From contig CAYZZW010000003.1 in assembly GCA_964482955.1 (NCBI GenBank), positions 68,676 to 132,675 on the forward strand: a stretch of DNA of 64,000 bases, given 5' to 3'. The notes below the pieces were generated by a model. That model was given only the letters and a program-made list of their open reading frames with translations. It had not been told where the DNA came from and searched no databases. This document shows, piece after piece, positions 19,412-51,435 of this stretch (position 1 is its first letter; the number at the start of each line of letters is the position of its first letter). The position numbers and the translations under genes are program-made. The DNA comes from an uncultured Treponemataceae bacterium (GTDB taxonomy: Bacteria > Spirochaetota > Spirochaetia > Treponematales > UBA12059).

Positions 19412-20382
<971 letters not shown>

Positions 20383-20386
<4 letters not shown>

Positions 20387-25203: not shown

Positions 25204-25219
25204 TTTATTGGAGGACGAC

Positions 25220-26722: not shown

Positions 26723-26737
26723 TTTCGTAAGCATGAT

Positions 26738-28231
26738 ATGGAGGGTGATATGAACGAGAGGATTTTCGGGGGAGACGCGGCGTTGACGTTCGACGACGTG
26801 CTCGTCGTGCCGGGATACAGCGAGGTGTTGCCGTCGCAGGTGGACGTGAAGGCCACGCTGGCGCGCGGCGTCAAGCTCGGCATACCGCTCGTGTCGGCGG
26901 CCATGGACACGGTCACCGGTTCCGCGCTCGCCATCGCCATGGCGCGCATGGGCGGCATCGGCATCATCCACCGCAACATGTCGCCGGACGAGCAGGCGCT
27001 CGAGGTCGAACGCGTGAAGCGCTCCGAGTCCGGCATGATCCACGATCCCGTGTGCCTGCACGAAAGCGCCACGCTCGGCGAGGCGCTCAAGATCATGGGG
27101 TCATTCCGCATCTCCGGCATCCCCATCGTCGAGGAAGGCACGAAGAAGCTCGTCGGCATCCTCACGAACCGCGACATCCGTTTCTGCGGCCGGGAAGAAG
27201 AGGGCAAGGCCGTCCGCGAGTTCATGACGCGAGAAGGTCTCGTCACCGCCCGCGTCGGCACCACGCTCGACGAGGCGCGCGGCATCCTCCAGAAGCACCG
27301 CATCGAAAAGTTGCCGCTCGTCGACGACAAGGGCCGCCTCGAGGGACTCATCACCGTAAAGGACATACAGAAGAAGGCCGATTACCCGAACGCCTCCGTC
27401 GACTCGGACGGGCGACTCCTCGCGGGCGCGGCCGTCGGCGTCGGCGCGGACCTCGAGACGCGCGTGAAGCTCCTCGTCGCGCGCGGCGTGGACGTCGTCG
27501 CGGTGGACACGGCGCACGGCCACTCGAAGGGCGTCATCGACGCCGTGAAGCGCATCAAGGCCGTCGCGAAGGACCTGCCAGTCATCGCGGGCAACGTCGT
27601 CACCGCCGAAGGCGTCGCGGCGCTCGTGGCCGCCGGCGCGGACGCGGTGAAGATCGGCGTGGGCGCCGGCTCCATCTGCACGACGCGCATCGTCTCCGGC
27701 TCCGGCATGCCGCAACTCTCCGCCGTCTACGCCTGCGCCGTCGAAGGCAGGAAACGCGGCGTCCCGGTCATCGCGGACGGCGGCGTCAAGTATTCCGGTG
27801 ACATCGTGAAAGCCATCGTCGCGGGCGCGGAGACGGTCATGCTCGGCAGCCTCCTCGCGGGTTTGGAAGAATCGCCCGGCGAACTCATCCTCTATAATGG
27901 AAGGCAGTACAAGACCTATCGCGGCATGGGCAGCATGGGCGCGCTCCAGGGCTACGGCCGCGACCGCTACGGCACCGGCCAGTCGGGCCCGGACAAGCTC
28001 GTGCCGGAAGGCGTCGAGGGCATGATCCCGTACAAGGGCAAGCTCGAGGAATACGTCTTTCAGCTCGTCGGCGGCCTCCGCTCCGGCATGGGCTACGCGG
28101 GCGCCGCGACCCTAAACGACCTCCGCACGAAGACCGCGCTCGTCCGCATCACGAACGCCGGTCTCACCGAAAGTCACCCGCACTCGATCACCATCACCCG
28201 CGAAGCCCCGAACTACAACCGCGGCGAGTAA
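26738..28231 (+). CDS. guaB: IMP dehydrogenase
   Basis: 497-aa ORF with the catalytic loop [15 protein letters not shown] and a CBS pair in the middle. An alternative start is the second Met at 26750. Confidence 0.9.
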
Positions 28232-30036: not shown

Positions 30037-30085
30037 GCTTCAACTATACCGGAGCGGGGGCTCCGCGGCAAACGGGCAAAGGAAA

Positions 30086-30120
30086 GGAAGGCCGGCGGAC
30101 GCGCGGTCCGCCGGCCTTCC
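30086..30120 (-). terminator. Strong hairpin downstream of the DAACS symporter gene
   Basis: A 15-bp perfect stem, GGAAGGCCGGCGGAC (30086-30100) with GTCCGCCGGCCTTCC (30106-30120), and a 5-nt loop. On the minus strand it is followed by TTTCCTTTG, a modest U-tract. Confidence 0.6.
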
Positions 30121-30190
30121 TGTTCGGTTCATGCGATTCCGGGAACCCGATGGGATTCGGAATCCGGACGGATCCCGGAACCGGCCCGGA

Positions 30191-31504
30191 TCACTTCCAT
30201 TTCGAGAGATCGAGTTCCTTTTCGGTCTTGGCGACGATGGCGGAGCCGGCGATGTCGCCCGTGACGTTGAGGCAGGTGCGGCCCATGTCGAGAAGGGCGT
30301 CGATGCCGAGGATCATCGCGTAGGCGGCCGCGATGGCCGAGCCTTCGGTGACCTTGAGGCCGATGGACTCGAGGACCATGAGGAGCATGATGGCGCCGGC
30401 GCCGGGCACGCCCGCCGTGCCGATGGACGCGAGCGTGGCGGTGATGACCACCGTCAGCTGCTGGTTGAAGGTGAGGGGATTCCCGGTGGCGTAGCCGATG
30501 AACATCGCGCAGACGCCAAGGTAGATGGCCGTTCCGTCCATGTTGATCGTCGCGCCGAGGGGCAGAGTGAAGGAGCAGATGCCGCGCGGGATGCCGAGCT
30601 TCTCCTCGGAGCAGCGCATGGTGACGGGCAGGGTGCCGTTCGACGAGCGGGACACGAACGCCGTGATCATCGCCTCGTTCGCGCCCTTCAGGAACTTGAA
30701 GAAGCCGAGGCGGAAGATCGAGAGGAAGCCGCCGTAGCAGCCGACGAGGTGGATGAGGAGTCCGAGGTAGACGGTGATCGTCACCATGAGGAGCGGACCG
30801 ACGGCCTTCGCGCCCTGCTGGGCGAAGACCTGCGCGATGAGGACGAACACGCCGACCGGCGCGTACTGCATGATGCCGGCCACGACCTTGTACATGGTCT
30901 CGGCGGCGGCGTTGCAGACGTCGAAGAGGGCGGAGGCTCCTTTGGCGACGGACTCGTTCTTCGAATCCTTGACGTAGGAGATGGCCAGGCCGAAGACCAC
31001 CGCGAAGAATATGATGGGGAGCACGTCGCCCTTGGTCAGGGATTCGACCGGGTTGGTGGGTACGATGTTGAGGAGGATCTGGACGAGCGTCGGGGCTTCC
31101 GCCGTCTTGCCCTTGATGGCGGCGTCGCCGACGATGTTCATGCCCAGGCCCGGCTGGAAAATGTTGGCGAACGCGAGGCCGATGACGACGGCGACCGCGC
31201 TCGTGAAGAGGTAATAGAGGATGATCTTCACGCCGACTCGGCCGAGGCGCGACGGCGCGATGCTCGCGGCGCCCGCGATGAGCGAGAAGAGGATGACCGG
31301 CACGACGATCATCTTGAGCAGGCGGATGAAGAGGTCTCCGAAGAATTTCGTGTAGTCGACGAAGGGTTTGACCGCGTCGGGATTGAACCCGAGCGCGATG
31401 CCGACCACGGCGCCGAGCCCGAGGGCGATGAGGATCCTGAGAAGCAGATTCGACTTGAAGTACCAGTCGAAGATGCCCCTCTTTCCGGAATTGGCAGCGC
31501 TCAT
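30191..31504 (-). CDS. Dicarboxylate/amino acid:cation symporter (DAACS/SDF family)
   Basis: 437-aa ORF preceded by AAGGAGG. Family motifs are [25 protein letters not shown] and [14 protein letters not shown]. Confidence 0.9.
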
Positions 31505-31632
31505 GTGCGCCTCCTTATGGAACCTGACGTACGCTCCGCCCGATCGGGCGAAAACTTTTCATCCAGTCTACACCTCGCCCGTCGCGGGCGAAATGCACCA
31601 TAGGGAGTATTTTGCTTGCGCCGCGGGCGCCG

Positions 31633-32289
31633 TCAGATGAGACGTTCCTCGAGGACCTTCTTCACGATCTCGGCCTTCGACGAGACGTTGAGCTTCTGGT
31701 AGATGTGAAGGATGTGTTTCTTCGCGGTGGAGCCGGCGATGTGGTGCCGTTCGGCCAGCTCGCGGTAGGTGAGCCCGTCGACGATGTCCTTGAGGACTTC
31801 GCGTTCGCGGGAGGTCAGCTTGTAGTCGCTGACCGGTTCGCGGTTCGCGTCGCGCCTGACTTCGTCGAGCAGGCGGCGGGCCACGGTGGGGCTGATCGGC
31901 GAGCCGTCGTCGCGGGCCGAGAGGATCTGCTCGACGAGCGCGTCCGGCTTCGTGTTCTTGAGGATGTAGCCCTTCGCGCCGGCCTTGATCGAATCGAGGA
32001 TGCGGTCTTCGTCCTCGAAGATCGTGAGGACGATGACGGATACGGACGGGTATCGCCCGCCGAGCAGCTTCGTGGCTTCGATGCCGGTCATGCCGGTGAG
32101 GTTGATGTCCATGAGGACGATCTCCGGCGGCTGGTTGTCCCCGAGCCACGAGAAGAGGTCCTCGGCCCCGGAAAACGACGCCAGGACCTTCACCCGCGCG
32201 TCCAGCCCGAGGAGGTAGCACAGGCCTTCCCGCACCTCGAGCTCGTCCTCGACGACGACGATCGTCGTCGGTTCCCCCGTTTCCTTCAC
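31633..32289 (-). CDS. NarL/LuxR-type response regulator
   Basis: Track ORF 31633..33738 trimmed to the GTG at 32289, which overlaps the kinase stop (GTGA); the product is 218 aa. It has a receiver domain (IVVVEDELEVREGL, IVLMDINLTGMTG) and a LuxR HTH (LTSREREVLKDIVDGLTYRELAERHHIAGSTAKKHILHIYQKLNV). Confidence 0.9.
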   Translation of the reverse strand: MKETGEPTTIVVVEDELEVREGLCYLLGLDARVKVLASFSGAEDLFSWLGDNQPPEIVLMDINLTGMTGIEATKLLGGRYPSVSVIVLTIFEDEDRILDSIKAGAKGYILKNTKPDALVEQILSARDDGSPISPTVARRLLDEVRRDANREPVSDYKLTSREREVLKDIVDGLTYRELAERHHIAGSTAKKHILHIYQKLNVSSKAEIVKKVLEERLI

Positions 32290-34082
32290 GCCTTCACCTC
32301 CGCGCCCGCCGGAACTTCGATCACATAACGCGTGCCCGCTCCGTCGGCCGATTCGAAATCCACCGCGCCGCCGAGCCTCGTTATGCGATATTGGATGTTG
32401 TCGAGGCCCGTCGCGCCGCGCCCGCGGCTCCGCGAGCCGATGCCGATCCCGTCGTCCGAGAACCGGAGGATGACGCCGTTCTTGCCTCCCCCGAGGAGGA
32501 AGCGCACTTTCGCGGCCTTCGAATGCTTGAGCACGTTGCTCACGAGCTCCTCGCACACCTTCTCGATCTCGTCGCGGCTTTCCTGCGAAAGGCCGTTGTA
32601 GGCTTCCCGGCCGCGGACGCGGCATTCGAAGCCGATGCCGGACGCCTTGAGCCGATTGCGCATGCCGGCCACGAGGAGCTTCGAGGGATCGCTGCCGATG
32701 GTCTCGTCGCGCTTCATCCCGAGGATGATCTCCTTGAGCTGGCGCACGGCCTCGAGGCAGTTGCCCTCGACGCGGTCCAGGAGCTCGCGCAGGCGGGCCG
32801 GGCCGCCCTTGGCCAGGTCCTTGGCGACGCCGTTCGCGAAGAAGATGTTCGTGAGCCGCGCCCCGATGGAGTCGTGCATGTCGCGGTAGATCCGCTGGCG
32901 CTCCTCCATGATCCGGAGCTGGGTGTTTTCCCGCTGGAGGCGCCACGCTTCCTCGGTGCGCCGGGCGACCTTCTCCTCGAGTTCGCGCGAGTATTCCTCG
33001 ACCGTGCCGAAGAGGCGGTTGAACTCGTTCCCGAGTATGCCGAATTCGTCGTGGGTCTTGATGTCCACCCGGGCGTTCTTGTCCCCGGATTCGAGCCGGT
33101 TGATCACCGAGACGATGTGGCCGAGCGGCGACACGATCAGCTTCCCGGTGACGGCAGCTATGGCGAGCACGAGGAAGACCGTGAGGGCGATCTCGATGGC
33201 GCTCACCGTGTTGAGGAGGGTCCGCATGGAGAGGAACATGGGCTCGAGGGGCATGCCCACCGCGATCTTCCATTTGAAGCGTCCCGTCTGCCGGTGGAAG
33301 AAGAGGTATTCCCGTCCGCTCGCCACGCCGCGGAAGTCGCCCGAATCGAGCTCGACGATTCGGCGGTAGTCCCGTTCCGACAGGCCGCCGCGCGGCGGAC
33401 CGGCGGATACCGCGTCCTCGAACTGGCTGGCCACGATGACGCCGCCGGGAGCCAGGACGATGGCCTTGCCGCCCCGGGGGATGTCGAGCTTTTCGAGCAT
33501 GGTGTGGAAGTCGTCGAGCAGGATGTCCAGCCCGAGCACGCCGACGAAGGAGCCGTTCTCGGCGAGCACGGGCATGGCGCAAGTGATGCCGTAGCGGTCG
33601 GTGCTCGCGAAACGGTAGGGCTTGGACAGGATGAGGTCTCCGCGCGCGATCGCGTCGAGGTACCAGGGCCGCGTCCGCGGGTCGTAGTCGGGGGGGATGG
33701 CGGGCAGGTAATCGGAAAAGCCCTCTCCGTAGCCCCATTCCAGCATCCGTCCGTCGACGGTGCCGAGATAGATCGCCCTCAAATAGCTCTGGCGTTCGAG
33801 CACGGTGGACACGAAGAGGTCCCGCATCGCGTCGGCCCGGACGTTCTTGACGATTTTCAAGTCCGCGTAGGATCGGGCCAGGTGTTCCAGTTCGCCGACG
33901 AAGTCGTCGAGGCGGCGCTCGGTCTGGTCGAGCATGAGCGAGGCGATGCCGTCGGCCGTGTCGTTCGCGTATTCGCCGACCATGCCGCGGATCACGGCGA
34001 AGCTGGCTACCATGAACGCTACCACGAAGCAGGCGACCACGAGTATGAATTTCTCACCGAGTCCGAAACGACGCTTGTCCAT
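32286..34082 (-). CDS. Sensor histidine kinase: dCache-like sensor, HAMP, HisKA_3, HATPase
   Basis: Track ORF 32286..34223 trimmed to Met48 (ATG at 34082, MDKRRFGLGEKFILVVACFVVAFMV). It has a Cache-like periplasmic region (YRFASTDRYGITCAMPVLAENGSFVGVLGLDILLDDF), an H-box (RQRIYRDMHDSIGARLTNI) and an ATPase G-box region (DDGIGIGSRSRGRGATGLDNI). Confidence 0.9.
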   Translation of the reverse strand: MDKRRFGLGEKFILVVACFVVAFMVASFAVIRGMVGEYANDTADGIASLMLDQTERRLDDFVGELEHLARSYADLKIVKNVRADAMRDLFVSTVLERQSYLRAIYLGTVDGRMLEWGYGEGFSDYLPAIPPDYDPRTRPWYLDAIARGDLILSKPYRFASTDRYGITCAMPVLAENGSFVGVLGLDILLDDFHTMLEKLDIPRGGKAIVLAPGGVIVASQFEDAVSAGPPRGGLSERDYRRIVELDSGDFRGVASGREYLFFHRQTGRFKWKIAVGMPLEPMFLSMRTLLNTVSAIEIALTVFLVLAIAAVTGKLIVSPLGHIVSVINRLESGDKNARVDIKTHDEFGILGNEFNRLFGTVEEYSRELEEKVARRTEEAWRLQRENTQLRIMEERQRIYRDMHDSIGARLTNIFFANGVAKDLAKGGPARLRELLDRVEGNCLEAVRQLKEIILGMKRDETIGSDPSKLLVAGMRNRLKASGIGFECRVRGREAYNGLSQESRDEIEKVCEELVSNVLKHSKAAKVRFLLGGGKNGVILRFSDDGIGIGSRSRGRGATGLDNIQYRITRLGGAVDFESADGAGTRYVIEVPAGAEVKA

Positions 34083-34181
34083 GACGGACGCCGATTGTAC
34101 CGCGCCTTCGGGCGCGGGGCAAGGACCGGCCCGAACGCGCGTTCCGAAAAACCGCCTTGGAAAATTGCCAGCGGCGGGCAA

Positions 34182-37100
34182 ATGGAGTACACTGTCTCCA
34201 TGGATCCAGAACGATCTCATCATATCGCCCCGACCGACTTCCCGAACCTCGCGTTCGACAAGCTCGCGTCTTCATACACCATCGTCAAGACGGTCCATGA
34301 CCAGTTCCGCGGGCGCATCGCCGAGATAGCGCCGAAACTGGACGGCCAGGAAAGGCTCATCGCGCAGGCGCAGGCCCGTTGCGACGCGCTCAAGCCGCGG
34401 CTCGCCGAGCTTGCCGAGGCCATATCCGCGGTCATCTCCGTGGTCAACGACGCGCGCGGCTTCGTCGCGTCTGGCGAGGAGAGCCTCAAGGTCTCGGTCG
34501 TCAGGGTGCGCGACGCCGTCGAGCGCGTGCGCGCCCTGGACGCCGAGATGCGGGTCATCGTGGAGATCGCGGGGCGCGTGGCGGAGCGCATGGGGGAGAT
34601 CGCGGACATCGCCGTCGAGAACAAGCTGATAGCGATCAACGCGTCCATCACCGCGAGCCGCGCCGGCGACAAGGTACGCGGATTCAAGGTGATCGCGGCG
34701 GAAGTGACCCGCCTGTCGGTGCTCATGGCCGAAAAGGTGGACGCCATCGTGGCCCGGTCGTCGAGGACGGCGGAGCGCGTGTCGCTCATGACGCGGCAGA
34801 TGCGGGACGGCGTGGACAGCACAGCCAACGCCGTGCGCAGCATCGACGAGGCCTTCGGCATCCTGTCGGACATCCTGGAGACGATGGAAGGCGCCGGCCG
34901 TTCGGCCCGCGAGATGCTCGAGGAAGCGGGCACGCTCGCCGCGGGCGTCGAGCACCTCCGTTCCTCGCTGTCCGACGTCGCCGAATCGGGTTCGGGCGCC
35001 GCCCGCGTGGCGGAGGAGAGCGCGCGGCTCATCGCCTCCCAGCAGTCGGAACTCGAAGGCATCGGTTCGGACATGCCGGAGCTCGGGCATCGCGCCCGCG
35101 ATCTGGCCGCTCGGGCGCGAGAACTCGGGGGCGAAGGGCAGGAGCCCGGCGACGACGAGACCACCCTCGTCATGAGCGAACTTCCCATCGGCCAATACGA
35201 TCCGGCGCTCGCCACCCTCGTGCGCGAATACCACTACGCCATCTTCACGTGCCTCCGGCTCATCCGTTACTCGAGCGACAAGAAACTCGTGCCGTACTTC
35301 GCGGAATCCTGGACCCTGGTCGACGGCGAACGCACCTGGGACTTCACGCTCAAGAAGGGCGTCAAGTTCCCCGACGGCACCGAGGTGACGTCCGCGGACG
35401 TCAAGTTCTCGCTCGAACGCGTCCTCAAGCCCGATTTGAAATCGCCCTACGCCAACTTCCTCACCGTCATCGAGGGAGCGGACGAGTTCCGCGCCGGGCG
35501 GGCGGCCGAAGTGCGCGGCATCGCGCCGACCGGCCCCTACGCCGTGCGCATCGTGCTCAAGAGCGCGACGAATTTCTTCCTCGGGCTCCTCGCGCACAGT
35601 TTCTGCTCGATCGTGAAGAAGGATCCCGCTTGGTTCGGCGCGCCCCTGACCCGTTCCGCCGTCGTGTCGGCGGGGCCCTACCGTTCGCTTCCCGAGAGCA
35701 CCGACGCCGTGCAGGTCCTCGAGGCGAATCCCGGTTTCGTGAACGGTTCGCCGTTCTTCCGCCGGTTGGTGATCAGGCGGGACGTGAAGGACATCGCGGC
35801 CGCGGCGGCCGCCGGCGAGATGCGGATCGCCTACAACATTCCCGCGGCGCTCGAGCGCGACATCAGGCACGCCGGTTTCCGCGGCGAAACGCGCCGCTAC
35901 GTCTCGCGGTACTGCGCCGGCATCTGCGTCAACTTCCTGAAGGACAATCCCGTCACCCGGAACGCCGAGCTCAGGCGCGCCCTGGTCATGGCGCTCGACC
36001 GGGACGGCATCGTGGGACGGGCGTTCGGGGGCGACGCTGTCCGGGCCGATACCGTCATCGTGAAGGAACTCCTCGACACGGGCGAGCGCGGATTCGTGGA
36101 ATTCAACCCGGATCGCGCCAAGGAGACAATCGCGGCTTCGGGCGTCTCGGGCATGACCTTCACGCTCGCGTTCGTGAAAAGCCCGGCGTACGTCGGCGCG
36201 GACAAGGTCGTCCGCGACGTGGCCGAGGATTTCGCGCGTGCCGGGGTCAAGGTTTCGATCGTGGAGCTGCCGCCCGAAAAGGCCAAGGTCGAGGAATACC
36301 GAAAATACGACCTCGTGCTCCTCCGCTTCATGCCGGAGCCGGATCTCTACGCGGGACTCGAGCCCTTCATCAATCCCGAAGGCGGCGACAACTACTTCCA
36401 TTACGACAATCCGGCCATCTTCGACGAGCTCAAGGCGTCGATCTCGATCCGCAACGAAAACGACCGCAAGGAGCGGTTCAAGACCATCATCGAGCACTTC
36501 ACGCTCGACGTGTTCATGATCCCGCTCTATTTCCAGAAGACCATCTGCCTCATCGCGCGCGGGGTGAAGAGCGTGTACCTTTCGCTCGAGGAATCCTTCT
36601 TGCCCGACGCCGCCTATCCGGACGTCCTTTCGGCTTCGTTCGAGGCGGTCCGAAGGGACCAGGCTGGCAAGGCGCTCGTGGCCGAGTACGCGAGCCGAAC
36701 CAACGCGATGCGCGCCCGCGTTGCGCGGGTGGACGAGAGCGCGGCATCGCTGAACGGTTCGCTCGGCGCGATGATACACGGCGTCCTCGGGCAGGGGCGA
36801 AAACTGGCGGAAATAGACGCGGCCATCCGCGATTTCGAGGAACGTTCCGCGCGGCTCAAGGGCAAGAGCGTCGCCGTCAGCGCCGAGGTCCGCAAGTCGG
36901 CCGAGGAAGCCCGCGGCAGCGCGGACGCCGCGCGCATGATCCTGGACGGCCTGGACCGGCTCCAGCGCGAGCTGTCGGCCACCGCGGCGTCGCTCGACCT
37001 CGTGACGAAGGACATCGCCGAGATGGTGTCCATCTCCGAGTCGATCGCCAAGTCGAACGACGTGATCGGCTCGGTGGCGGTCAACGCGGCCATCATCTCG

Positions 37101-37577
37101 TCGAAGGGGGGAGCCGCGAAGGCGGATCTGCTCAAGGTGTCGAAAGCCATCGCGGAACTCGCCCGGCGCAACGACGAGTACGGCACGGCGACGAAGAGCA
37201 TCCTCGCCGAGATGTACGAGCTCGCGCGCGCGGACTCGGGCGGGCTCGCGAAGTCGATCGCCGTCATGGCGGAGGCGATCGGCGAAGTCGGTTCGTCGGG
37301 CGCCATGCTGGCGCGCGTGGCGCCCACCCTGGGCGACGTCGAAGGCCGGACGAACCGCATCGCCGCGCTCACCGACGAACTCGCCGGGCTCCTCGGCGAG
37401 ACGGCCCGGGCGGTTTCGGACAGGAGCGGCGCCTCGAGCTACGTCATGTCGTCCGCCGAGACGATGAAGTACGGCATCGAGCTCGAGCGCGCCGTCGTGG
37501 AAGTCCTCCGCGACGTAGTCGAGCTCAACAAGCAGTTCGGCGTCGAAGTGTCCGGCGAGCAGGCTTCGATTCGCTGA
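34182..37577 (+). CDS. Cytoplasmic chimera: MCP-signalling domain, family-5 solute-binding (OppA/DppA-like) domain, then a second degenerate MCP-like coiled coil
   Basis: This is the 3' part (1131 aa) of track ORF 32391..37577, starting at the ATG at 34182 (alternative 34200). The upstream part of that ORF is antisense to the kinase gene. The MCP hairpin tip is EIADIAVENKLIAINASITASRAGDKVRGFKVIAAEVTRLS (34599-34718). The SBP_bac_5-like core is FAESWTLVDGERTWDFTLKKGVKFPDGTEVTSADVKFSLERVLKP, spanning roughly 35163-36611. A degenerate second tip is ISESIAKSNDVIGSVAVNAAIISSKGG (37032-37163). I see no signal peptide or TM segment. Confidence 0.8.
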   Translation: MEYTVSMDPERSHHIAPTDFPNLAFDKLASSYTIVKTVHDQFRGRIAEIAPKLDGQERLIAQAQARCDALKPRLAELAEAISAVISVVNDARGFVASGEESLKVSVVRVRDAVERVRALDAEMRVIVEIAGRVAERMGEIADIAVENKLIAINASITASRAGDKVRGFKVIAAEVTRLSVLMAEKVDAIVARSSRTAERVSLMTRQMRDGVDSTANAVRSIDEAFGILSDILETMEGAGRSAREMLEEAGTLAAGVEHLRSSLSDVAESGSGAARVAEESARLIASQQSELEGIGSDMPELGHRARDLAARARELGGEGQEPGDDETTLVMSELPIGQYDPALATLVREYHYAIFTCLRLIRYSSDKKLVPYFAESWTLVDGERTWDFTLKKGVKFPDGTEVTSADVKFSLERVLKPDLKSPYANFLTVIEGADEFRAGRAAEVRGIAPTGPYAVRIVLKSATNFFLGLLAHSFCSIVKKDPAWFGAPLTRSAVVSAGPYRSLPESTDAVQVLEANPGFVNGSPFFRRLVIRRDVKDIAAAAAAGEMRIAYNIPAALERDIRHAGFRGETRRYVSRYCAGICVNFLKDNPVTRNAELRRALVMALDRDGIVGRAFGGDAVRADTVIVKELLDTGERGFVEFNPDRAKETIAASGVSGMTFTLAFVKSPAYVGADKVVRDVAEDFARAGVKVSIVELPPEKAKVEEYRKYDLVLLRFMPEPDLYAGLEPFINPEGGDNYFHYDNPAIFDELKASISIRNENDRKERFKTIIEHFTLDVFMIPLYFQKTICLIARGVKSVYLSLEESFLPDAAYPDVLSASFEAVRRDQAGKALVAEYASRTNAMRARVARVDESAASLNGSLGAMIHGVLGQGRKLAEIDAAIRDFEERSARLKGKSVAVSAEVRKSAEEARGSADAARMILDGLDRLQRELSATAASLDLVTKDIAEMVSISESIAKSNDVIGSVAVNAAIISSKGGAAKADLLKVSKAIAELARRNDEYGTATKSILAEMYELARADSGGLAKSIAVMAEAIGEVGSSGAMLARVAPTLGDVEGRTNRIAALTDELAGLLGETARAVSDRSGASSYVMSSAETMKYGIELERAVVEVLRDVVELNKQFGVEVSGEQASIR

Positions 37578-37624: not shown

Positions 37625-38548
37625 TCAGGCGCGGGAAGCGACGAAGGCCAGCACCGCGCGCTCGATGTCGTCGCGCACCGCCCGCACGCGAGCCATGATA
37701 TCGTCGTCGCTTCCCTGAAAGGCCGAAGGATCGTCGAAGGGCCAGTGAAGGCGTTCGACGCGGCCGGGAAAGATGGGGCAGCGTTCGGAAGCTTCCTTCG
37801 AACAGACCGTCACGACGACGTCGAACGCGGCTCCCGCGTCCTCGAGCGCGAACACGGTTTTCGTCGAGTTGCCGGAGATGTCGATGCCGCGTTCCGCCAT
37901 CGCGCGCACGACGAAGGGATTCAGTTTTCCCGCCTCCAGTCCGGCGCTTTCGACCGCGTAGTCGCCGCCGGCGTGTCGTTCCAGGAAAGCCGCGGCCATC
38001 TGGCTCCGCGCGGAGTTGTGGACGCACAGGAAGAGGACGCGCGTCTTGCCGACGCCGGCAAGACGATCGGCGCCGCGCTCCGGCTCCCGTTGCGCCGGCT
38101 TCGCCATGAGCGGATTCTCCCCGGATCGTGTCTTGATCTTGCAGGCGCACTGACCGCCGAGTTCGTATTCGACGTCGCGCCGTACCGGCAGGCCGTCGTT
38201 GTCCCACTCCACCATGCCGCCCGCCAGGTACGCGATGTTTTCGTAGCCGGCGGCGGCAAGCGCCGCCGCCGCCTGCCGGGCGTAGATGCCAACGGCGTCC
38301 GCGATCACGAGCGGCCTGTCCCGAGGCAGCTCCGGCTCGATCGACTCGAATTTCGTCCAGGGCGCGTAGATCGCGTCGGGTACGTCGAAGACGCGGAAGT
38401 TCGTCTCGTAGGTTTCGCGGAGATCGACGAGGACCGCGCCTCGGCGGAGGCATTCGTACGCTTCCGCCGACGACAGAACCGCGATGCCGTCGTGCCGCGG
38501 CAGCTTGCCTTGGTACGCGCGGAAATCCGGGATCCCGACCATGCTCAC
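37625..38548 (-). CDS. arsC: Rhodanese-like domain fused to a thioredoxin-coupled (LMW-PTP type) arsenate reductase
   Basis: 307-aa ORF. The N-terminal rhodanese fold includes LVDLRETYE and ENIAYLAGGMVEW. The C-terminal ArsC has a CX5R P-loop (LFLCVHNSARSQMAAAF) and the downstream Cys pair (VTVCSKEASERCPIFPG). Confidence 0.85.
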   Translation of the reverse strand: MSMVGIPDFRAYQGKLPRHDGIAVLSSAEAYECLRRGAVLVDLRETYETNFRVFDVPDAIYAPWTKFESIEPELPRDRPLVIADAVGIYARQAAAALAAAGYENIAYLAGGMVEWDNDGLPVRRDVEYELGGQCACKIKTRSGENPLMAKPAQREPERGADRLAGVGKTRVLFLCVHNSARSQMAAAFLERHAGGDYAVESAGLEAGKLNPFVVRAMAERGIDISGNSTKTVFALEDAGAAFDVVVTVCSKEASERCPIFPGRVERLHWPFDDPSAFQGSDDDIMARVRAVRDDIERAVLAFVASRA

Positions 38549-38570
38549 CTCCGGTACGGTCCGGACGGGC

Positions 38571-39623
38571 TCACGCCGTCTTCGGGAACGAGGAGCGGGT
38601 GGCCTTGGCGATGCGCACGAGCGAGAGCATCACGGGCACTTCCACGAGCACGCCGACAACGGTCGCCAACGCGGCGCCCGAAGACAGCCCGAAGAGGCTG
38701 ATCGCCACGGCGACGGAGAGCTCGAAGAAATTCGACGCGCCGATCATTCCCGCGGGCGCCGCCACTTCGTACGGCACCTTCCACGCCTTGGCCCAGCCGT
38801 AGCCGAGGAAGAAGATGACGTAGGTCTGGATGACGAGCGGCACGGCGATGAGGACGATGGCGAGCGGATTGGCGAGGATCACGCGGCCCTGGAAGGCGAA
38901 GAGGATGACGAGCGTGAGGAGGAGTCCCGCTTCGGTGATGCCTTCGAAACGCTTGAGGAAGACGCCCTCGAACCACTCGACGCCGCGCTTCCGGATGAGA
39001 AGCGTCCGGGTGACCGCCCCGGCGCCGAGCGGGATGACCACGAAGAGCGCGACGGAGAGGAAGAGCGTGTCCCAGGGGACGCGCACGTCGCTCACGCCGA
39101 GGAGGAAGCCCACGATGGGCGTGAAGGCGAAGAGGATGACGAGGTCGTTGACCGCCACCTGCACCACGGTGTAGCCCGCGTCGCCGTCGGAGAGGTAGGA
39201 CCAGACGAAGACCATGGCGGTGCAGGGCGCGGCGCCGAGGAGCACGGCCCCGGCCAAATATTCGGTGGAGAGTCCCGCGGGGATGAGCGCCTTGAAGACC
39301 ACCTTGAGGAAGAACCAGGCGATCGCGTACATCGTGAAGGGCTTCACGAGCCAGTTCACGACGAGCGTGACGACGAGTCCCTTCGGTTTCTTTCCGGCGT
39401 TCTTGACGCTGCCGAAATCGACCTTGAGCATCATGGGATAGATCATGAGCCAGATGAGGATGGCGACGGGTATCGAGACCCGCGCGTATTCGAACTTGCC
39501 GAGGAAGGCGGGCACTCCCGGGAGGAAATGCCCGATGGCCACGCCGAGCCCGATGCAGAGCGCCACCCACAGCGAAAGATACTTCGCGAAAAAGCCGATG
39601 CCCGAACGCGCCGCTTTTTCCAT
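38571..39623 (-). CDS. acr3: ACR3-family arsenite efflux transporter
   Basis: 350-aa polytopic ORF with an ACR3-like N-terminus (FFAKYLSLWVALCIGLGVAIG ... VAILIWLMIYPMMLKVDF). Confidence 0.9.
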   Translation of the reverse strand: MEKAARSGIGFFAKYLSLWVALCIGLGVAIGHFLPGVPAFLGKFEYARVSIPVAILIWLMIYPMMLKVDFGSVKNAGKKPKGLVVTLVVNWLVKPFTMYAIAWFFLKVVFKALIPAGLSTEYLAGAVLLGAAPCTAMVFVWSYLSDGDAGYTVVQVAVNDLVILFAFTPIVGFLLGVSDVRVPWDTLFLSVALFVVIPLGAGAVTRTLLIRKRGVEWFEGVFLKRFEGITEAGLLLTLVILFAFQGRVILANPLAIVLIAVPLVIQTYVIFFLGYGWAKAWKVPYEVAAPAGMIGASNFFELSVAVAISLFGLSSGAALATVVGVLVEVPVMLSLVRIAKATRSSFPKTA

Positions 39624-39660
39624 GTCGACCTCCCGATTTCGTTCCTTCCTGTTCGACCGG

Positions 39661-39903
39661 TTACTTCGAGAACTTCCTGATGAGCGTCACCGCGTCTTTC
39701 GTCTCGATGAGCTTGCCGAAGGACACGACCTTCCCGTCGATGACGAGCGCGGGCGTGGTCATGACCCCGTACGCCGCGATCTCCCCGAGGTCCCCGACGT
39801 TCTCGACCTCGACGCCGAGCCCGAGCTCGGCCACCGCCTTCTTCACGTTTTCGAAACTGGCCTGGCTTTTCTTGCAGCAGGCGCCCAGCACTTTGATGGT
39901 CAT
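39661..39903 (-). CDS. Small thioredoxin-fold protein (redox-active disulfide protein 2-like) with a vicinal Cys pair
   Basis: 80-aa ORF, MTIKVLGACCKKSQASFENVKKAV...TPALVIDGKVVSFGK. Size and pattern match the small Trx_3-type proteins. The usual CxxC position reads CCKKS. Confidence 0.75.
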   Translation of the reverse strand: MTIKVLGACCKKSQASFENVKKAVAELGLGVEVENVGDLGEIAAYGVMTTPALVIDGKVVSFGKLIETKDAVTLIRKFSK

Positions 39904-39916
39904 GATATCGCCTCCC

Positions 39917-40162
39917 TTATCCGCAGCACTTGCCGCCGCAGCCGCATTCGTCCTTGACCGACGCGTCGCCGACGTACTGGATGGCGCCGGCGGGGCACTT
40001 GTTGCCGCAGCCTTTGCAGCCCTGTACGCAGCCTTCGGGATACACGACGAGGGGCGAAGGCGCCTTCGCCTTGTCGTAGACGCCGTGGCGGCACATGGCC
40101 ACGCAGGCGCCGCACTCGGCGCAGAGCGAATAATCGATTACCGGGTACCAGGTCTTGGACAT
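39917..40162 (-). CDS. Small 2x[4Fe-4S] ferredoxin-like protein with a Cys-rich tail
   Basis: Track ORF 39917..41137 trimmed to the ATG at 40162 (81 aa). The cluster motifs are CAECGACVAMC and CVQGCKGCGNKCP, and the C-terminus is DECGCGGKCCG. Confidence 0.75.
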   Translation of the reverse strand: MSKTWYPVIDYSLCAECGACVAMCRHGVYDKAKAPSPLVVYPEGCVQGCKGCGNKCPAGAIQYVGDASVKDECGCGGKCCG

Positions 40163-40179
40163 GGCTCTCTCCTTTCGTG

Positions 40180-41184
40180 TCAGACGAACAAGAATCCCAG
40201 GGCGTTGAACGCGTAGCCGATGACGACGATGCCGGCGGCGACGATGGAAACGAAGACGGCGAGCAGTTTCGCCTTCACGACCTTCTTGAGCATGATCATG
40301 GAAGGCAATGACAACGCGGTCACGGCCATCATGAGCGAGAGGATGGTCCCGACCCCGACGCCCTTGGCGTAGAGAGCTTCCGCCACGGGAATGGTCCCGA
40401 ATATGTCCGCGTACATGGGGATGCCGACCGCGGTGGCGATGAGCACGGAAAAGGGATTGCCGGCGCCGAGGACGTTCTGTATCCATGTCTCCGGCACCCA
40501 GTTGTGGATGACGGCGCCGACGCCCACGCCGACGAGGACGTAGGGCCACACTTTGAGGAAGGTCTCCAGCATGCGGTCCCGCGCGTAGACCAGACGGTCT
40601 CTCCGCGTCAGCTCGGGAAGCTCGAGGTCCGCGCCCCCTGCGGGTTTTCCGATGCGGATGACGAACGCCTCCATCCCGAGCTTGTCGATGAGGGTGCCGC
40701 CGACGACGGCCAGCATGAGGCCGACGACGACGTAGGCCACGGCGATGGGCGCTCCGAAGACGCTCACGAGGAGGACGAGGGCCCCGAGGTCCACGAGCGG
40801 CGACGATATGAGGAAGGAAAACGTCACGCCGACGGGAAGGCCGGCGTTCGTGAAGCCGATGAAGAGCGGTATGGACGAACAGCTGCAGAACGGCGTGATC
40901 GTGCCGAGCAGGGCGCTCAGGACGTTGGCCGTGATTCCCTTGAAACGCCCGAGGATTTTCTTCGTGCGCTCCGGCGGAAAGTGGCTCTGGACGTACGAGA
41001 TGACGAAGATGAGCGTGCAGAGGAGGGCGAGTATCTTGACCGAGTCGTAGAGGAAGAACCGGACGCTGGCCCCGAGCCGCGACGAAACGTCGAACCCGAG
41101 CGCGGCGAGCGCCGAACCGACGAGCGCGTCGAGCCACGCCATTCCCAGCACCTGTTTTTGGATGAAGTTCCAGATCACGAGCAT
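40180..41184 (-). CDS. DUF318/ArsP-type permease
   Basis: 334-aa polytopic ORF with the conserved TPFCSCSSIPLF motif of this permease family. An alternative start is Met15 at 41142. The first start overlaps the arsR stop by 10 nt. Confidence 0.8.
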   Translation of the reverse strand: MLVIWNFIQKQVLGMAWLDALVGSALAALGFDVSSRLGASVRFFLYDSVKILALLCTLIFVISYVQSHFPPERTKKILGRFKGITANVLSALLGTITPFCSCSSIPLFIGFTNAGLPVGVTFSFLISSPLVDLGALVLLVSVFGAPIAVAYVVVGLMLAVVGGTLIDKLGMEAFVIRIGKPAGGADLELPELTRRDRLVYARDRMLETFLKVWPYVLVGVGVGAVIHNWVPETWIQNVLGAGNPFSVLIATAVGIPMYADIFGTIPVAEALYAKGVGVGTILSLMMAVTALSLPSMIMLKKVVKAKLLAVFVSIVAAGIVVIGYAFNALGFLFV

Positions 41185-41510
41185 GCGTTCATCTCCTTGG
41201 CGCCGAATGAGGCGGCTTTCCGGCGTCCGGCGTGCGGAGCGGTGAAGGCTTCGAAGACTTTGAGCGCCTCGTCATGGCCGGAGCGCGACAGCGAGTAATG
41301 CGTCCATTTGCCGTCCTGGCGCGAATCGACGAGGCCCGAATCGCAGAGGATCTTCAGATGGTGGGACAGGGTGGACTGCGCGATGTCGAGTTCCTCGAGG
41401 AGGACGCAGGCGCATTTTTCGCCGGAGCACAGCAGCTCCAGGACGCGCAGGCGGTTTTCGTCGCAGAGCGCCTTGAAGATCCGCGCGCCGCGGGCGTAGC
41501 CGGTTTCCAG
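41175..41510 (-). CDS. arsR: ArsR/SmtB-family metalloregulator
   Basis: This is the C-terminal 111 codons of track ORF 41175..42716. The winged HTH is IFKALCDENRLRVLELLCSGEKCACVLLEELDIAQSTLSHHLKILCDSGLV, with the CAC metalloid site. There is no in-frame ATG/GTG/TTG after the promoter. The only candidate is CTG at 41510, 6 nt after AGGAGG, so the start is uncertain. Confidence 0.75.
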   Translation of the reverse strand: METGYARGARIFKALCDENRLRVLELLCSGEKCACVLLEELDIAQSTLSHHLKILCDSGLVDSRQDGKWTHYSLSRSGHDEALKVFEAFTAPHAGRRKAASFGAKEMNACS

Positions 41511-41522
41511 AACGGGCCTCCT

Positions 41523-41576
41523 CGTATCGAAAAACGTCGATACGAGGAGGATAGCGATCACATCGACGATTGTCAA
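41523..41576 (-). promoter_or_regulatory. Sigma70-type promoter plus palindromic operator of the ars operon
   Basis: The minus strand reads TTGACA (41576-41571), a 17-nt spacer, TATCCT (41553-41548), and then the perfect palindrome CGTATCGA-CGTTTT-TCGATACG (41544-41523). The palindrome abuts the AGGAGG ribosome-binding site of arsR. Confidence 0.55.
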
Positions 41577-41593
41577 TGTGAAGCGGGGAAGGA

Positions 41594-42871
41594 TCAGCGG
41601 ATCGCGGCGGCGACCGCGGAGGCGTCCTTGGCGGCCTCGAGCGAGACCGAGAGGTTCGAGAGCGTGCCGACGGGGTCGTGGAAGCCCATCGAGTTCGCGC
41701 TCGCCGTGTAGTCCCAGAACCACTGCGCCTTGCGCACCAGGTCCCGCGCGCGCGCGAGGTCGGGAGACGAAGGCGCGCGTTTCGCGGCGGCCGCGATGGC
41801 CAGGTGGGCGTCGGCCACGGCCGAGCCGGCCCTGGTCTGGGCGGCGTAGACCGCGTCCTGCCGCGACTTGACCTGGGCGACGATCCAGTCCTTCGTCTTC
41901 GACTTGTGGCAGCGCAGGCACGAATCCTCGACGGCCGCGAGCGGGGTCGTGATGTGGTGGCTCCGCATCCCCTTGCCGTCCACCTCGGTCCACGGCATGT
42001 GGCAGGTGGCGCAAGACACTTTCGACTGTCCGTGCACCCCGGCCGAGTATTCCTCGTAGTCGGGGTGCTGCGCCTTGAGGAGGCGGGCTTTCGAGTCGTC
42101 GTGCGTGAAGTCGCCGTCGAAGCCCGCGGGCTTCGTCTCGTAGTAATCCCACGCGGCTTGCGCGCCGAGGCCCTTCGCCCACGGGAAGACGACCTTCGTC
42201 GTCCCCGGCTCGAAGTAGTATTCCGAGTGGCACTGGGCGCACACGTAGGTTTCCATCTGTCCGCGCGTCGCCTGGTCGAAGTCGATGCCGGTCGCCTTCG
42301 CGGCGTCGAGGAAGCCGGGCTGGATCGGGCGGAGCTTGCCCGTCGCCTTGTCGTGGCAGGTGAGGCAGTCGATGCCGGGATGCTCCGTCGAGGTGAATTC
42401 CTTCAGGGGCTTTTTCGCGTAGTCCCAGCCTTCCTTGGCGTAGATGTCGGCGATCGAGCTCGTCTTGCACGACAGGCAGGCGCCCGGGCTCTTGTCGGAA
42501 ACCCGCTTCGTCTTGAGGAGGTCTTCCCACGCGTAGACGTGGCCGCGGTCTTCCGCGTAGTCCTTCGAGAACGGACTGCCGCGGAAGTTGACGGCGAGCT
42601 CCTTCACGAGCCCGACGCGCTGGAACGGTACCGAGCCGCCGTAGCCCGTCGGAGACGGGGCCATGATCCGGTTGTCCGCGTCCATCTTCGCCTGGAGCGG
42701 GAAGCGCGCCGCCCACTGCGCCGCGTTCGGGCCTTCCGCCTCGGGCGTGGCGGCGCCGACCGCGTCGGGCTGCTGGGGAGCCTGCGCCGGTGCCGGTTTG
42801 GGGGCGCAGGACGCGACTGCGAAGGCGACTACCGCTACGGATAGAATCGTGGCTACGCGGCGTTGGATCAT
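41594..42871 (-). CDS. nrfA: Pentahaem cytochrome c nitrite reductase (NrfA-like), probable lipoprotein
   Basis: Track ORF trimmed to Met24 (ATG at 42871, preceded by GGAGGT). The signal/lipobox is MIQRRVATILSVAVVAFAVASC. The haem motifs are CLSCK (the NrfA-specific CxxCK), CLTCH, CAQCH, CATCH and CLRCH. Confidence 0.85.
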   Translation of the reverse strand: MIQRRVATILSVAVVAFAVASCAPKPAPAQAPQQPDAVGAATPEAEGPNAAQWAARFPLQAKMDADNRIMAPSPTGYGGSVPFQRVGLVKELAVNFRGSPFSKDYAEDRGHVYAWEDLLKTKRVSDKSPGACLSCKTSSIADIYAKEGWDYAKKPLKEFTSTEHPGIDCLTCHDKATGKLRPIQPGFLDAAKATGIDFDQATRGQMETYVCAQCHSEYYFEPGTTKVVFPWAKGLGAQAAWDYYETKPAGFDGDFTHDDSKARLLKAQHPDYEEYSAGVHGQSKVSCATCHMPWTEVDGKGMRSHHITTPLAAVEDSCLRCHKSKTKDWIVAQVKSRQDAVYAAQTRAGSAVADAHLAIAAAAKRAPSSPDLARARDLVRKAQWFWDYTASANSMGFHDPVGTLSNLSVSLEAAKDASAVAAAIR

Positions 42872-42958
42872 GGCGACCTCCCGGCGGGCGCGACGGCGGC
42901 CCGACGCCCGAATTCTAGCCGATGCGGCGCCGCGGGGCAAGCGTACGGCCGACGTGGG

Positions 42959-48289: not shown

Positions 48290-48305
48290 CGGATACCCCA
48301 TTGTC

Positions 48306-49817: not shown

Positions 49818-49850
49818 GCCAGTACTCCCATGAATCGTCTGGTGAACCGT

Positions 49851-51406: not shown

Positions 51407-51435
51407 TTGACAGCACCCGAAACGCCCCTTATAGT
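51407..51435 (+). promoter_or_regulatory. Candidate sigma70 promoter for the giant-gene operon
   Basis: TTGACA (51407-51412), a 17-nt spacer, then TATAGT (51430-51435), about 90 nt upstream of the ATG at 51528. It sits inside the AT-richer 411-bp divergent spacer. Confidence 0.45.

Follow-up and report, generated by a model that had tools for sequence, protein, structure and literature searches.

The locus and its reading frame

The gene lies at positions 34182..37577 on the + strand of the window, i.e. of the whole 64-kb stretch of DNA that was analysed. It consists of a single ORF, from ATG to TGA, encoding a protein of 1131 aa whose residue numbering is used below; an identical protein is already on record in NCBI (P0001). 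The in-frame GC content at third codon positions (GC3, frame 1) was 0.81-0.94 in each 300-nt block, and since it was uniform across the whole ORF, both domain junctions included, a frameshift is absent. A longer ORF starting at 32391 was rejected as the antisense shadow of a dCache-HAMP-HisKA_3 kinase gene located on the - strand. The DNA upstream of the gene is the coding strand of this divergent kinase gene, so an N-terminal extension of the protein is impossible.

A sigma-70-like promoter sequence (TTGCCA, 17 nt, TACACT), which is a match to the consensus only, was found at 34165..34193 (+). The scanned region contained two such matches in comparison to 0.2 expected, and both were placed within the divergent intergenic gap. 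The putative -10 box (34188-34193) follows ATG 34182 and precedes ATG 34200 by 6 nt. The true start may therefore be ATG 34200, which would give a protein six residues shorter (1125 aa), and the transcript may be a leaderless mRNA. No signal peptide is gained from either of the two starts.

The earlier note described a soluble protein, and the description holds for the whole family: a signal peptide, lipobox or TM segment was present in 0 of the 31 members. The Kyte-Doolittle maxima calculated over 19 residues reached only 1.1-1.9 in these proteins and all of them fell within core elements of the SBP or within segments of the helical arms and tips. Judged by its sequence, the protein is membrane-free and has no export signal. 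A frameshift, a missed signal peptide and the lack of an MCPsignal match, named in the same note as findings that would speak against it, were all tested for and none of them applies.

The two hairpins and the SBP5 domain

Hairpin 1 (34230..35126, +, residues 17-315) was delimited using AF2, Pfam MCPsignal, the family profile and the alignment. In the AF2 model an N-arm helix (17-161), a turn at 162 and a C-arm helix (163-315) make up a complete MCP signalling hairpin of ~21 heptads per arm. Pfam MCPsignal (PF00015) matched residues 140-267 with E 5.8e-11 and 43.0 bits, above the gathering cut-off of 34.6, and the family profile of the hairpin matched TM1143 (E 6e-16), Tm14 (3g67/3g6b, E ~2e-14) and PcaY (E 3e-12, gapless). 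No indels were found within hairpin 1 among the 31 members. Its tip-distal end carries the N-terminal cap motif (34236..34316, +, residues 19-45) with the consensus (D/E)YPxIAAEKYxAALxRVxxVHxRFxxEL, in which Y20, I23, A24, K27, A31, R34, V38, H39 and F42 are almost invariant and which forms a local conservation peak (0.68).

Tip 1 (34599..34718, +, residues 140-179, IADIAVENKLIAINASITASRAGDKVRGFKVIAAEVTRLS) is in register with Tsr 368-407. The near-canonical chemoreceptor tip proposed at this place is borne out by the Pfam match, and with invariant columns from A141 to S179 and conservation of 0.84-0.90 the tip belongs to the most conserved blocks of the protein. Residues N153, K/R160, D163, G167, F168 and E174 are invariant or nearly so. 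In Tsr numbering the tip keeps N381, R388 (K/R), E391 (as D), G395, F396 and E402, with T in place of E385. However, a transmembrane MCP encoded on the contig of one homologue has a canonical tip with which tip 1 had only ~13 of 35 residues in common, and the MCPsignal score of hairpin 1 was 43 bits versus 117-160 for the four ordinary MCPs scanned. Since tip 1 is clearly divergent, it may stay outside the main array or use another partner. An [EQ][EQ] pair shared by 70 % or more of the members was found in neither hairpin, and a C-terminal pentapeptide-like motif was not visible in the family alignment. Many soluble receptors are also devoid of methylation sites, so their absence here is compatible with membership of the MCPs.

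The SBP_bac_5 (SBP5) domain (35163..36629, +, residues 328-816) was assigned by Pfam, phmmer and Foldseek. Pfam SBP_bac_5 matched residues 368-731 with E 7.8e-50, and the phmmer matches in the PDB included 8upi (2e-22) and OppA (1e-17). The target-normalised Foldseek TM score of the AF2 model was 0.76-0.83 to the liganded structures of OppA, DppA, GbpA and NikA, and 0.64-0.67 to open DppA and MppA. The mid-protein SBP5 domain recognised earlier is hence complete, with a predicted cluster-C fold of the OppA/DppA/NikA type that in the model is nearer to the closed, liganded structures than to the open ones. With these binding proteins it has in common its fold and Pfam signature and, going by sequence alignment, probably also the ligand-strand motif and the conserved acid in it. 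It differs from them in being flanked by coiled coils and in lacking a signal peptide, a lipobox and cognate ABC transporter genes next to it. The ligand-strand motif (36306..36410, +, residues 709-743), located by HMMER alignment to OppA 1b05, has the consensus YDLVFLGFLSELDLYSAVEPFINPEGGDNYFxYxN and, with conservation of 0.92, is also among the most conserved blocks; E719, D721, Y723, E727, P728, F729, G734, G735, D736 and N737 are invariant. In the sequence alignment G-F-L-S-E719 is placed opposite G415-W-C-A-D419 of OppA, with the invariant Glu replacing Asp. G415-D419 of OppA is the strand, with its acid, that holds the peptide backbone and the N-terminal amine.

Flexible linkers connect the domain to each hairpin at the end away from the tip. 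Linker 1 (35127..35162, +, residues 316-327), defined by alignment and pLDDT, is rich in G/A/D/E/P, varies in length by up to ~30 residues among homologues and shows a dip of pLDDT to 61-73. Linker 2 (36630..36659, +, residues 817-826, with the variable stretch reaching ~833), defined by alignment, varies by up to ~40 residues and is G/D/A/P-rich in homologues. An SBP inserted at the distal end of the helical bundle had been suggested. Its position between the hairpins, at their tip-distal ends, was confirmed; a rigid insertion was not, and because the linkers are flexible, variable and not continuous helices, the domain is better described as tethered.

Hairpin 2 (36660..37553, +, residues 827-1124) was defined by AF2 and profile comparisons. 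It comprises a helix (827-975), a turn (976-979) and a second helix (980-1124), and is preceded by a short helix (818-825). As a single sequence it scored 13.8 bits against MCPsignal, below the threshold. The family profile of residues 834-1131, in turn, matched PcaY (6s18) with E 6e-9 over 250 gapless columns, tip on tip, and TM1143 with E 1e-5. An exhaustive search with this profile gave 9558 proteins at E<=0.001; all 13 that were checked with Pfam carry MCPsignal, and the others are MCP-like in length and in the position of the match. No indels were found within hairpin 2 among the 31 members.

The N and C halves were also related to each other by hhalign profile-profile comparison (probability 94.5 %, E 8e-8). 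Both hairpins map gapless to the same PcaY residues over 246-250 columns, and of 13 registers tried r to r+815 gave the highest identity between them. Hairpin 2 is thus a divergent paralogue of hairpin 1, equal to it in length and register. Position by position, the hairpins were compared for conserved charges of opposite sign, as a designed heterodimer might have, and none were found. The idea that the two helical halves are one hairpin split by the SBP does not agree with AlphaFold and the homology registers: both halves are complete hairpins that turn at 162 and at 976-979, respectively, which gives two signalling domains per protein.

Tip 2 (37044..37163, +, residues 955-994, IAKSNDVIGSVAVNAAIISSKGGAAKADLLKVSKAIAELA), pointed out previously as a second, degenerate tip, was corroborated by the profile match to PcaY and by the alignment with hairpin 1. 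I955, N959, S964, N968, A969, K975, L983, K985, V986 and I990 are invariant (conservation 0.72-0.75), and among the critical tip residues it keeps only N968 (=N381) and K975 (=R388). G395-F396 is replaced by (D/E)-L983 and E402 by A/S, while the residue at the E391 position varies. The C-terminal cap motif at the tip-distal end of hairpin 2 (37434..37529, +, residues 1085-1116) has the consensus LAxxAETLxFGLDMExAVADILxDVxxxN, with D1111 invariant and L1088, A1092, T1094, L1095, F1097, G1098, D1100, E1102, V1105, L1109 and N1116 almost invariant; its conservation was 0.66-0.67 versus ~0.5 in the mid-arms.

Family and gene neighbourhood

The homologues with the same domain order that had been anticipated do exist: 31 full-length relatives (34-49 % identity) with identical domain order were found, and the architecture recurs in 31 protein clusters whose source assemblies (NCBI, JGI, ENA and Logan) are independent of each other. 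All named relatives come from Spirochaetota MAGs, and the 14 GTDB species genomes in which a relative covers the protein wholly or for the most part are all Spirochaetota MAGs too (14/14). The family is uncharacterised and every member of known source belongs to Spirochaetota. Its architecture is kept under purifying selection, and the two tips, the ligand strand of the SBP and the two caps stand out as peaks of conservation. Rare relatives have the order hairpin-SBP5-hairpin-SBP5. The NCBI pipeline labels family members 'ABC transporter substrate-binding protein'.

SBP5-type peptide-binding domains normally work outside the cell. Here such a domain sits between two signalling hairpins of a membrane-free spirochaete protein, and no paper describing an SBP5 domain between two complete chemoreceptor hairpins was found in the literature. 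The nearest relatives of this SBP5 outside the family are the C-terminal SBP5 domains of STAND/kinase proteins, and since these carry no evident TM segment, a cytoplasmic SBP5 sensor has a precedent.

No che, flagellar or ABC-transporter genes adjoin the gene, either in the window or at any homologous locus inspected, and ABC permease or ATPase genes are likewise not adjacent. There are no che genes anywhere in the 64-kb window or among the called genes of four homologous loci inspected, and no neighbour gene is conserved across the homologous loci. Because most MCP genes are orphans, the missing che neighbours constitute weak counter-evidence to a chemoreceptor function.

A proposed tethered cytoplasmic chemoreceptor and its alternatives

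From these sequence features we infer chemoreceptor action, with the SBP5 domain as the ligand sensor and a predicted CheW/CheA coupling via tip 1. The best reading, to which we would assign a probability of about 0.6, is a soluble cytoplasmic chemoreceptor-type protein in which the tethered SBP5 is the sensor, possibly built as a single-chain pseudo-dimer.

The protein could instead be a double-ended homodimer similar to DosM of Vibrio cholerae (VC1403), although this is unlikely. Hairpins 1 and 1' and hairpins 2 and 2' would then form two opposed four-helix bundles with the SBP5 domains in the centre, and the rod would reach from one CheA/CheW baseplate of a sandwich-type cytoplasmic array to the other, adding a sensor to a scaffold that is sensor-less in Vibrio. 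DosM is also soluble with two MCP signalling domains per polypeptide (PMC7534058, PMC9321776), one at each end of an extended rod (PMC7534058), and equal hairpin lengths together with flexible linkers permit the same geometry here. Only two signalling domains and no sensory domain are present in 98 % of DosM homologues (PMC9321776), and the ~2 % that depart from this pattern leave room for such a variant. DosM is encoded together with triple CheW in F9 clusters, whereas no F9 genes lie near this gene, no CheW3 or cheA gene was found near any family member inspected and the F9 class was found in none of 42 Spirochaetes genomes (PMC9321776 supplement). In DosM, moreover, the domains are in direct tandem, whereas ~490 residues of SBP5 separate the hairpins here and tip 2 is degenerate, without the equivalents of G-F, E391 and E402 expected of a baseplate-binding tip. 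Both signalling domains of DosM are, we assume, canonical. No sequence relationship with DosM was seen beyond the general MCP level, and P0067 and P0097, which lack an SBP5 domain but have two stretches of MCPsignal, were no nearer to hairpin 2 than ordinary MCPs (E ~1e-11).

Slightly less probable still is a role outside chemotaxis, in which the MCP coiled coils would be re-used as a rigid scaffold or as a module for a partner beyond CheA/CheW, and the SBP5 would serve some other kind of regulation by binding a ligand or a second protein. The low MCPsignal scores, the lack of conserved methylation pairs and che neighbours, and the difference of both tips from the canonical tip found in the genome of a homologue would fit such a role, and tip sequences that are invariant and peculiar to the family point to a dedicated partner. 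On the other hand, tip 1 invariantly keeps the residues listed above, which in canonical receptors matter most for kinase control, the hairpin length is rigidly kept and indel-free as in array-forming receptors, and the protein has no other output domain. A mis-assembled or frameshifted fusion of an MCP and an SBP, or an exported SBP with a missed signal peptide, would suit the NCBI name of the family. This explanation has next to no credibility and was refuted by the intact ORF with third-position GC uniform over both junctions, the recurrence of the architecture in 31 clusters from independent assemblies, the divergent kinase gene that leaves no room for extension, the absence of a hydrophobic N-terminus in all 31 members and the lack of adjacent transporter genes.

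If the protein is a tethered cytoplasmic chemoreceptor, the Venus-flytrap cleft of SBP5 would bind a small molecule of the cytoplasm. A free amine on this ligand, as in a short peptide, is probable given the invariance of the strand that pairs with the backbone and of the acid at the position of OppA D419. SBP5 domains accept a wide range of ligands (peptides, Ni-His, glutathione, haem, opines and sugars), and this diversity, together with the Asp-to-Glu exchange at the D419 position, makes the peptide a soft guess. Both termini of the SBP are expected to exit from one lobe and the linkers are floppy, so the signal is probably not pulled through them. The closed SBP5 would rather dock, in a ligand-dependent manner, on the conserved distal caps (residues 19-45 and 1085-1116), and the resulting change of packing would run along the bundle to tip 1, the bearer of the residues by which canonical receptors couple to CheW/CheA. 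Adaptation by CheR/CheB methylation is probably absent.

Such docking would be a cis-tethered version of that of periplasmic MBP or DppA on Tar or Tap, the model for a closed binding protein acting on the distal end of a receptor; in E. coli a binding protein of the OppA/DppA family gives an MCP its ligand specificity (DppA with Tap; PMC8050422). The E. coli binding protein is a separate periplasmic molecule, its docking site is a four-helix sensor domain in the periplasm and the signal has to cross the membrane, whereas the SBP described here is covalently tethered, cytoplasmic and would act directly on the signalling bundle. T. maritima Tm14, HemAT, Aer2 and TlpD likewise have an MCP hairpin and no TM segment. 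They are homodimers with a single signalling domain; a small sensor (globin, PAS, CZB), where there is one, sits at one end, and an SBP5 sensor or second hairpin is found in none of them.

In ordinary receptors the four-helix bundle is built from two identical subunits. In the tethered receptor hairpin 2 would lie beside hairpin 1, in register, and a single chain would provide the four-helix bundle of a pseudo-dimer, with the degenerate tip 2 as the partner without kinase contact. The equal length and register of the hairpins, the pTM of 0.64 for the 1131-aa three-module chain (by a rough inference, ~0.45-0.5 would be expected for independent modules) and the hairpin-SBP5-hairpin-SBP5 relatives, which look like the tandem-duplicated protomer of an obligate dimer, lend some weak support to the pseudo-dimer. 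AlphaFold run on a monomer would tend to pack two amphipathic hairpins together regardless, and side-by-side packing of hairpins 1 and 2 is conjectural. The full version of this proposal, a natural single-chain 'dimer' with one kinase-coupling and one silent tip and a distally docking tethered SBP, which would have arisen by tandem duplication of a hairpin-SBP5 unit, is tentative and has clearly less than an even chance of being correct. If true, it would mean an intrinsically asymmetric receptor sensing the intracellular pool of an imported, peptide-like solute, and the tandem-duplicated state of the hairpin-SBP5 protomer would persist in the hairpin-SBP5-hairpin-SBP5 relatives.

Reading frame, start site and surrounding genes

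The gene at 34182-37577 (+) consists of one open reading frame of 1131 codons and a stop. Third-position G+C in frame 1 was 0.81-0.94 in each 300-nt block, both domain junctions included, and this uniformity indicates that there is no frameshift. Together with the finding of 31 full-length relatives with the same domain content, it ruled out a frameshift or fusion artefact, i.e. separate MCP and SBP genes joined by an assembly error, which the earlier note had raised. Likewise, an overlooked start further upstream that would add a signal peptide was ruled out, since the DNA ahead of the gene is the complementary strand of a dCache-HAMP-HisKA_3 histidine kinase gene (32289-34082, - strand), which starts 99 bp away and is transcribed divergently. 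A much longer ORF from 32391 was rejected as an artefact of high G+C, its upstream part being antisense to the kinase gene.

The 99-bp gap is filled by two divergent sigma-70-like promoter matches (34094-34193; 2 found versus 0.2 expected). With ATG 34182 as the start, the -10 box on the + strand (34188-34193) falls within the ORF, whereas it lies 6 bases ahead of ATG 34200; the predicted -10 boxes end 6-12 nt ahead of ATG 34200 (+) and ATG 34082 (-). The true start may be ATG 34200 on a leaderless mRNA, in which case the annotated 34182 would be wrong, and this gene and the kinase gene may both be leaderless or nearly so. The choice of start alters nothing else because the homologues can be aligned only from about residue 19; residues are numbered here from ATG 34182.

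The kinase gene is part of a divergent string of - strand genes (28300-34082) that also encodes a NarL/LuxR-type response regulator (31636-32283), a Na+:dicarboxylate symporter (30194-31504) and a GGDEF protein (28300-30036); beside the homologues this set of genes is not conserved. Directly downstream (37628-42940, - strand) lie an arsenic-type resistance cluster, comprising a rhodanese-LMW phosphatase fusion (ArsC-like), an ACR3/SBF carrier and an ArsP-type permease, and then a cytochrome c552 (NrfA-like) nitrite reductase. At 44090-51116 (-) a 1404-aa TPR + CHAT (caspase-like) protein adjoins an FGE-sulfatase-domain protein and a 421-aa protein without a Pfam match, and together they may form a module for signalling or a defence-like function. 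The G+C content falls from about 0.67 to 0.57-0.61 in the region 50000-62000, which encodes a 1943-aa protein (55884-61712, + strand) that combines leucine-rich repeats with an FGE-sulfatase domain. This region resembles DNA of foreign or recent acquisition. A purine-biosynthesis cluster at 14228-28228 (+) contains, besides PurB, PurC, PurF, PurH and IMP dehydrogenase, a PurS-PurL-type FGAM synthase (974 aa) and a GARS+AIRS, i.e. PurD-PurM, fusion (762 aa).

The protein family and its other layouts

A search of 5.8 billion proteins returned an identical protein on record in NCBI (140-kb contig) together with 31 full-length relatives (1056-1173 aa, 34-49 % identity), in all of which the domain content and order are repeated. 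Their source names, where given, are Spirochaetes, Spirochaetales or Spirochaetaceae, and their descriptions read either 'hypothetical protein' or, in other entries, 'ABC transporter substrate-binding protein', with both domains listed by the JGI pipeline. Among the GTDB species, each represented by one genome, 14 loci with a relative covering the whole protein or most of it were detected; all lie in Spirochaetota MAGs (Treponemataceae, Rectinemataceae, Treponematales, Spirochaetaceae). One Spirochaetes MAG (RA.bin94) carries two paralogues (loci L006 and L016), 38 % and 49 % identical to the protein studied here, so the family comprises at least two subfamilies, both present in this genome. 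An all-against-all comparison of flanking ORFs at 18 loci revealed no shared neighbour beyond the gene itself, and no che, flagellar or ABC-transporter genes adjoin it in the 64-kb window or in the homologous loci whose genes were inspected.

An exhaustive search also yielded three AT-rich proteins that are 1634-1687 aa long and have the layout MCPsignal-SBP5-MCPsignal-SBP5, namely P0046 (positions 5688-10751 of locus L019), P0047 and P0050, and two distant proteins of 1100-1143 aa with the three-part layout. Only these three clusters of the four-domain variant were found, a further homologue search included, and their second tip (AINAAIIAAKAGxWxxxFxxVSxEVRxLS) is nearer canonical. These relatives suggest that a hairpin-SBP5 unit, duplicated in tandem, gave rise to the family. 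Outside the family, the closest relatives of the SBP5 domain occur in large kinase/STAND-NTPase proteins, which carry one or two such domains at the C-terminus and lack an evident TM segment; cytoplasmic SBP5 sensor domains are thus not unique to this family. P0033, P0035 and P0036 (1310-1893 aa) combine a Ser/Thr kinase and/or STAND NTPase (AAA_16), sometimes with TPR, with one or two C-terminal SBP_bac_5 domains, and appear to represent another uncharacterised class of cytoplasmic SBP5-sensor proteins.

Domains, hairpins and tips

In Pfam, SBP_bac_5 was matched at residues 368-731 (E 7.8e-50) and MCPsignal at residues 140-267 with 43 bits, above the curated cut-off of 34.6; the central binding-protein domain and the chemoreceptor tip proposed from the sequence alone were thereby borne out, and a lack of MCPsignal match is no longer an objection. 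NCBIfam gave sub-threshold matches only, to Opp/Nik/Gsi/Dpp binding proteins and various MCPs. As the earlier note had claimed for this protein, no signal peptide, lipobox or TM segment was detected in any of 31 family members; their top 19-residue hydropathy windows (1.1-1.9) are located in SBP core elements or in helical-arm or tip segments.

An AlphaFold2 model built on a 31-sequence alignment (mean pLDDT 81.8, pTM 0.64) comprised a first hairpin (helix 17-161, turn 162, helix 163-315), a mixed alpha/beta domain (328-816) and a C-terminal half with helices 818-825 and 827-975, a turn at 976-979 and a helix at 980-1124. Since there is one turn per half, each helical half is a separate hairpin and not an arm of one. 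The profile of the N half matched T. maritima TM1143 (E 6e-16), Tm14 and Tsr, and aligned with PcaY over 246 columns without a gap (E 3e-12). That of the C half aligned with PcaY over 250 gap-free columns (E 6e-9), NAAI on NAAI, and with TM1143 (E 1e-5). The suggestion that both halves are MCP-type coiled coils therefore stands, and a single hairpin split by the inserted SBP domain was ruled out by the turn in each half and by the gap-free match of each to a whole MCP hairpin.

Through PcaY the two hairpins are collinear, residue r corresponding to r+815 (N153 = N968), the register with the highest identity among 13 tried; symmetric 7-residue gaps placed by hhalign at the tips were judged an alignment artefact, both hairpins being gap-free on PcaY. 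Direct profile-profile comparison of the two halves gave a probability of 94.5 % (E 8e-8). When 1.84 billion representatives were searched exhaustively with the C-half profile (HMMER), the family ranked first, followed by 9558 proteins at E<=0.001; all 13 checked by Pfam contained MCPsignal, and the others had MCP-like lengths and match positions. These matches identify hairpin 2 as a diverged MCP signalling domain. The arms measure about 145-150 residues each, roughly 21 heptads, and no indels occur within either hairpin among the 31 members, a behaviour expected of array-forming receptors. No conserved Glu/Gln pairs (methylation sites) were found in the arms in the 31-member alignment, nor was charge complementarity, a possible heterodimer signature, at equivalent positions of the two hairpins.

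Tip 1 (residues 140-179) has the consensus IAEIAIENKLIAINASVTASKASDKVKGFKVIASEITRLS and is in register with Tsr 368-407. The equivalents of Tsr N381, R388 (K/R), E391 (D), G395, F396 and E402 are invariant or nearly so, and Thr replaces Tsr E385. The tip is nevertheless divergent from the canonical one: 7.5 kb from one homologue lies the gene of a transmembrane dCache MCP whose tip is fully canonical, and tip 1 has only about 13 of 35 positions in common with it. Tip 2 (residues 955-994; SNxFIGSIAINAAIISAKxDxxxGELxKVSQSIAEQA) is degenerate, as first perceived: N968 and K975 are invariant, G395-F396 are replaced by (D/E)-L983 and E402 by A/S, and the E391 position is variable. Conservation was 0.84-0.90 in tip 1, 0.72-0.75 in tip 2 and about 0.5 in the arms; tip 2 is a conservation peak and therefore specialised, not decaying.

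The SBP5 domain is a complete cluster-C fold, in keeping with the OppA/DppA likeness noticed at the outset (Foldseek target-normalised TM 0.76-0.83 to OppA, DppA, DppE, GbpA, NikA, NikZ and AapF). Its model is closer to liganded than to open forms (DppA 0.76 versus 0.65, MppA 0.78 versus 0.64-0.67). In the HMMER alignment the OppA strand G415-W-C-A-D419, which pairs with the peptide backbone and salt-bridges the N-terminal amine of the peptide, corresponds to G-F-L-S-E719 of the family, with E719 invariant and within the most conserved block of the entire protein. Since this strand and E719 are retained, the cleft looks functional and is predicted to suit an amine-bearing, possibly peptide-like, ligand. 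The linkers (about 316-327 and 817-833) are rich in G/A/D/P and differ in length by tens of residues among the 31 members, which argues against rigid helix-to-helix coupling of SBP5 to the hairpins. In contrast, the tip-distal bundle ends are strongly conserved, and these caps, (D/E)YPxIAAEKYxAALxRVxxVHxRF (within residues 19-45) and AETLxFGLDMExAVADILxDV (within residues 1085-1116), are natural candidates for a docking surface.

Arrangement of the hairpins and significance of the family

The best-supported reading is that of a soluble protein of the chemoreceptor type in which a cytoplasmic binding-protein domain, held on a tether, acts as the sensor. Hairpins 1 and 2 would pack side by side within one polypeptide as a single-chain pseudo-dimer, a geometry that is favoured at a probability of roughly 35-40 %. 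It is in line with the identical length and register of the hairpins, with an asymmetric tip divergence that fits unequal roles of receptor-dimer subunits, with the duplicated-protomer relatives (hairpin-SBP5-hairpin-SBP5), which suggest such an origin, and with a model pTM that exceeds the expectation for three independent modules, none of these points being decisive.

The main rival is a double-ended rod like that of DosM (PMC7534058, PMC9321776), the only double-signalling-domain receptor in the literature. Three points speak against it: tip 2 is degenerate, the F9 class was found in none of 42 Spirochaetes genomes (PMC9321776), and there is no special sequence affinity to two-domain MCPs. 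It is also conceivable that the MCP-derived coils serve a role outside chemotaxis, to which the wide difference between tip 1 and the canonical tip of the MCP encoded near one homologue would point.

Full-text searches gave no paper in which MCPsignal and SBP_bac_5 are named together, nor any on a fusion of the two, and a review of SBP signalling treats SBP5 proteins only as separate periplasmic receptor partners. The parts are familiar; the combination of a cytoplasmic SBP5, two diverged signalling hairpins and flexible tethers is not. In an ordinary chemoreceptor dimer two sequence-identical subunits take different roles inside the trimer-of-dimers, and this asymmetry is difficult to take apart, as any mutation enters both subunits. 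If the pseudo-dimer is true, the diverged halves in one chain would reveal which tip residues each role needs and provide a natural scaffold for asymmetric receptor engineering.

Solute-binding-protein folds are usually considered extracytoplasmic. The present protein extends the idea of such folds as cytoplasmic sensors, as the STAND/kinase-SBP5 proteins also suggest, and that of binding-protein-mediated chemoreception, here hard-wired in cis. The database annotation 'ABC transporter substrate-binding protein' is misleading for this family, which is a candidate link of motility to an internal metabolite in uncultured Treponemataceae/Rectinemataceae-type spirochaetes.
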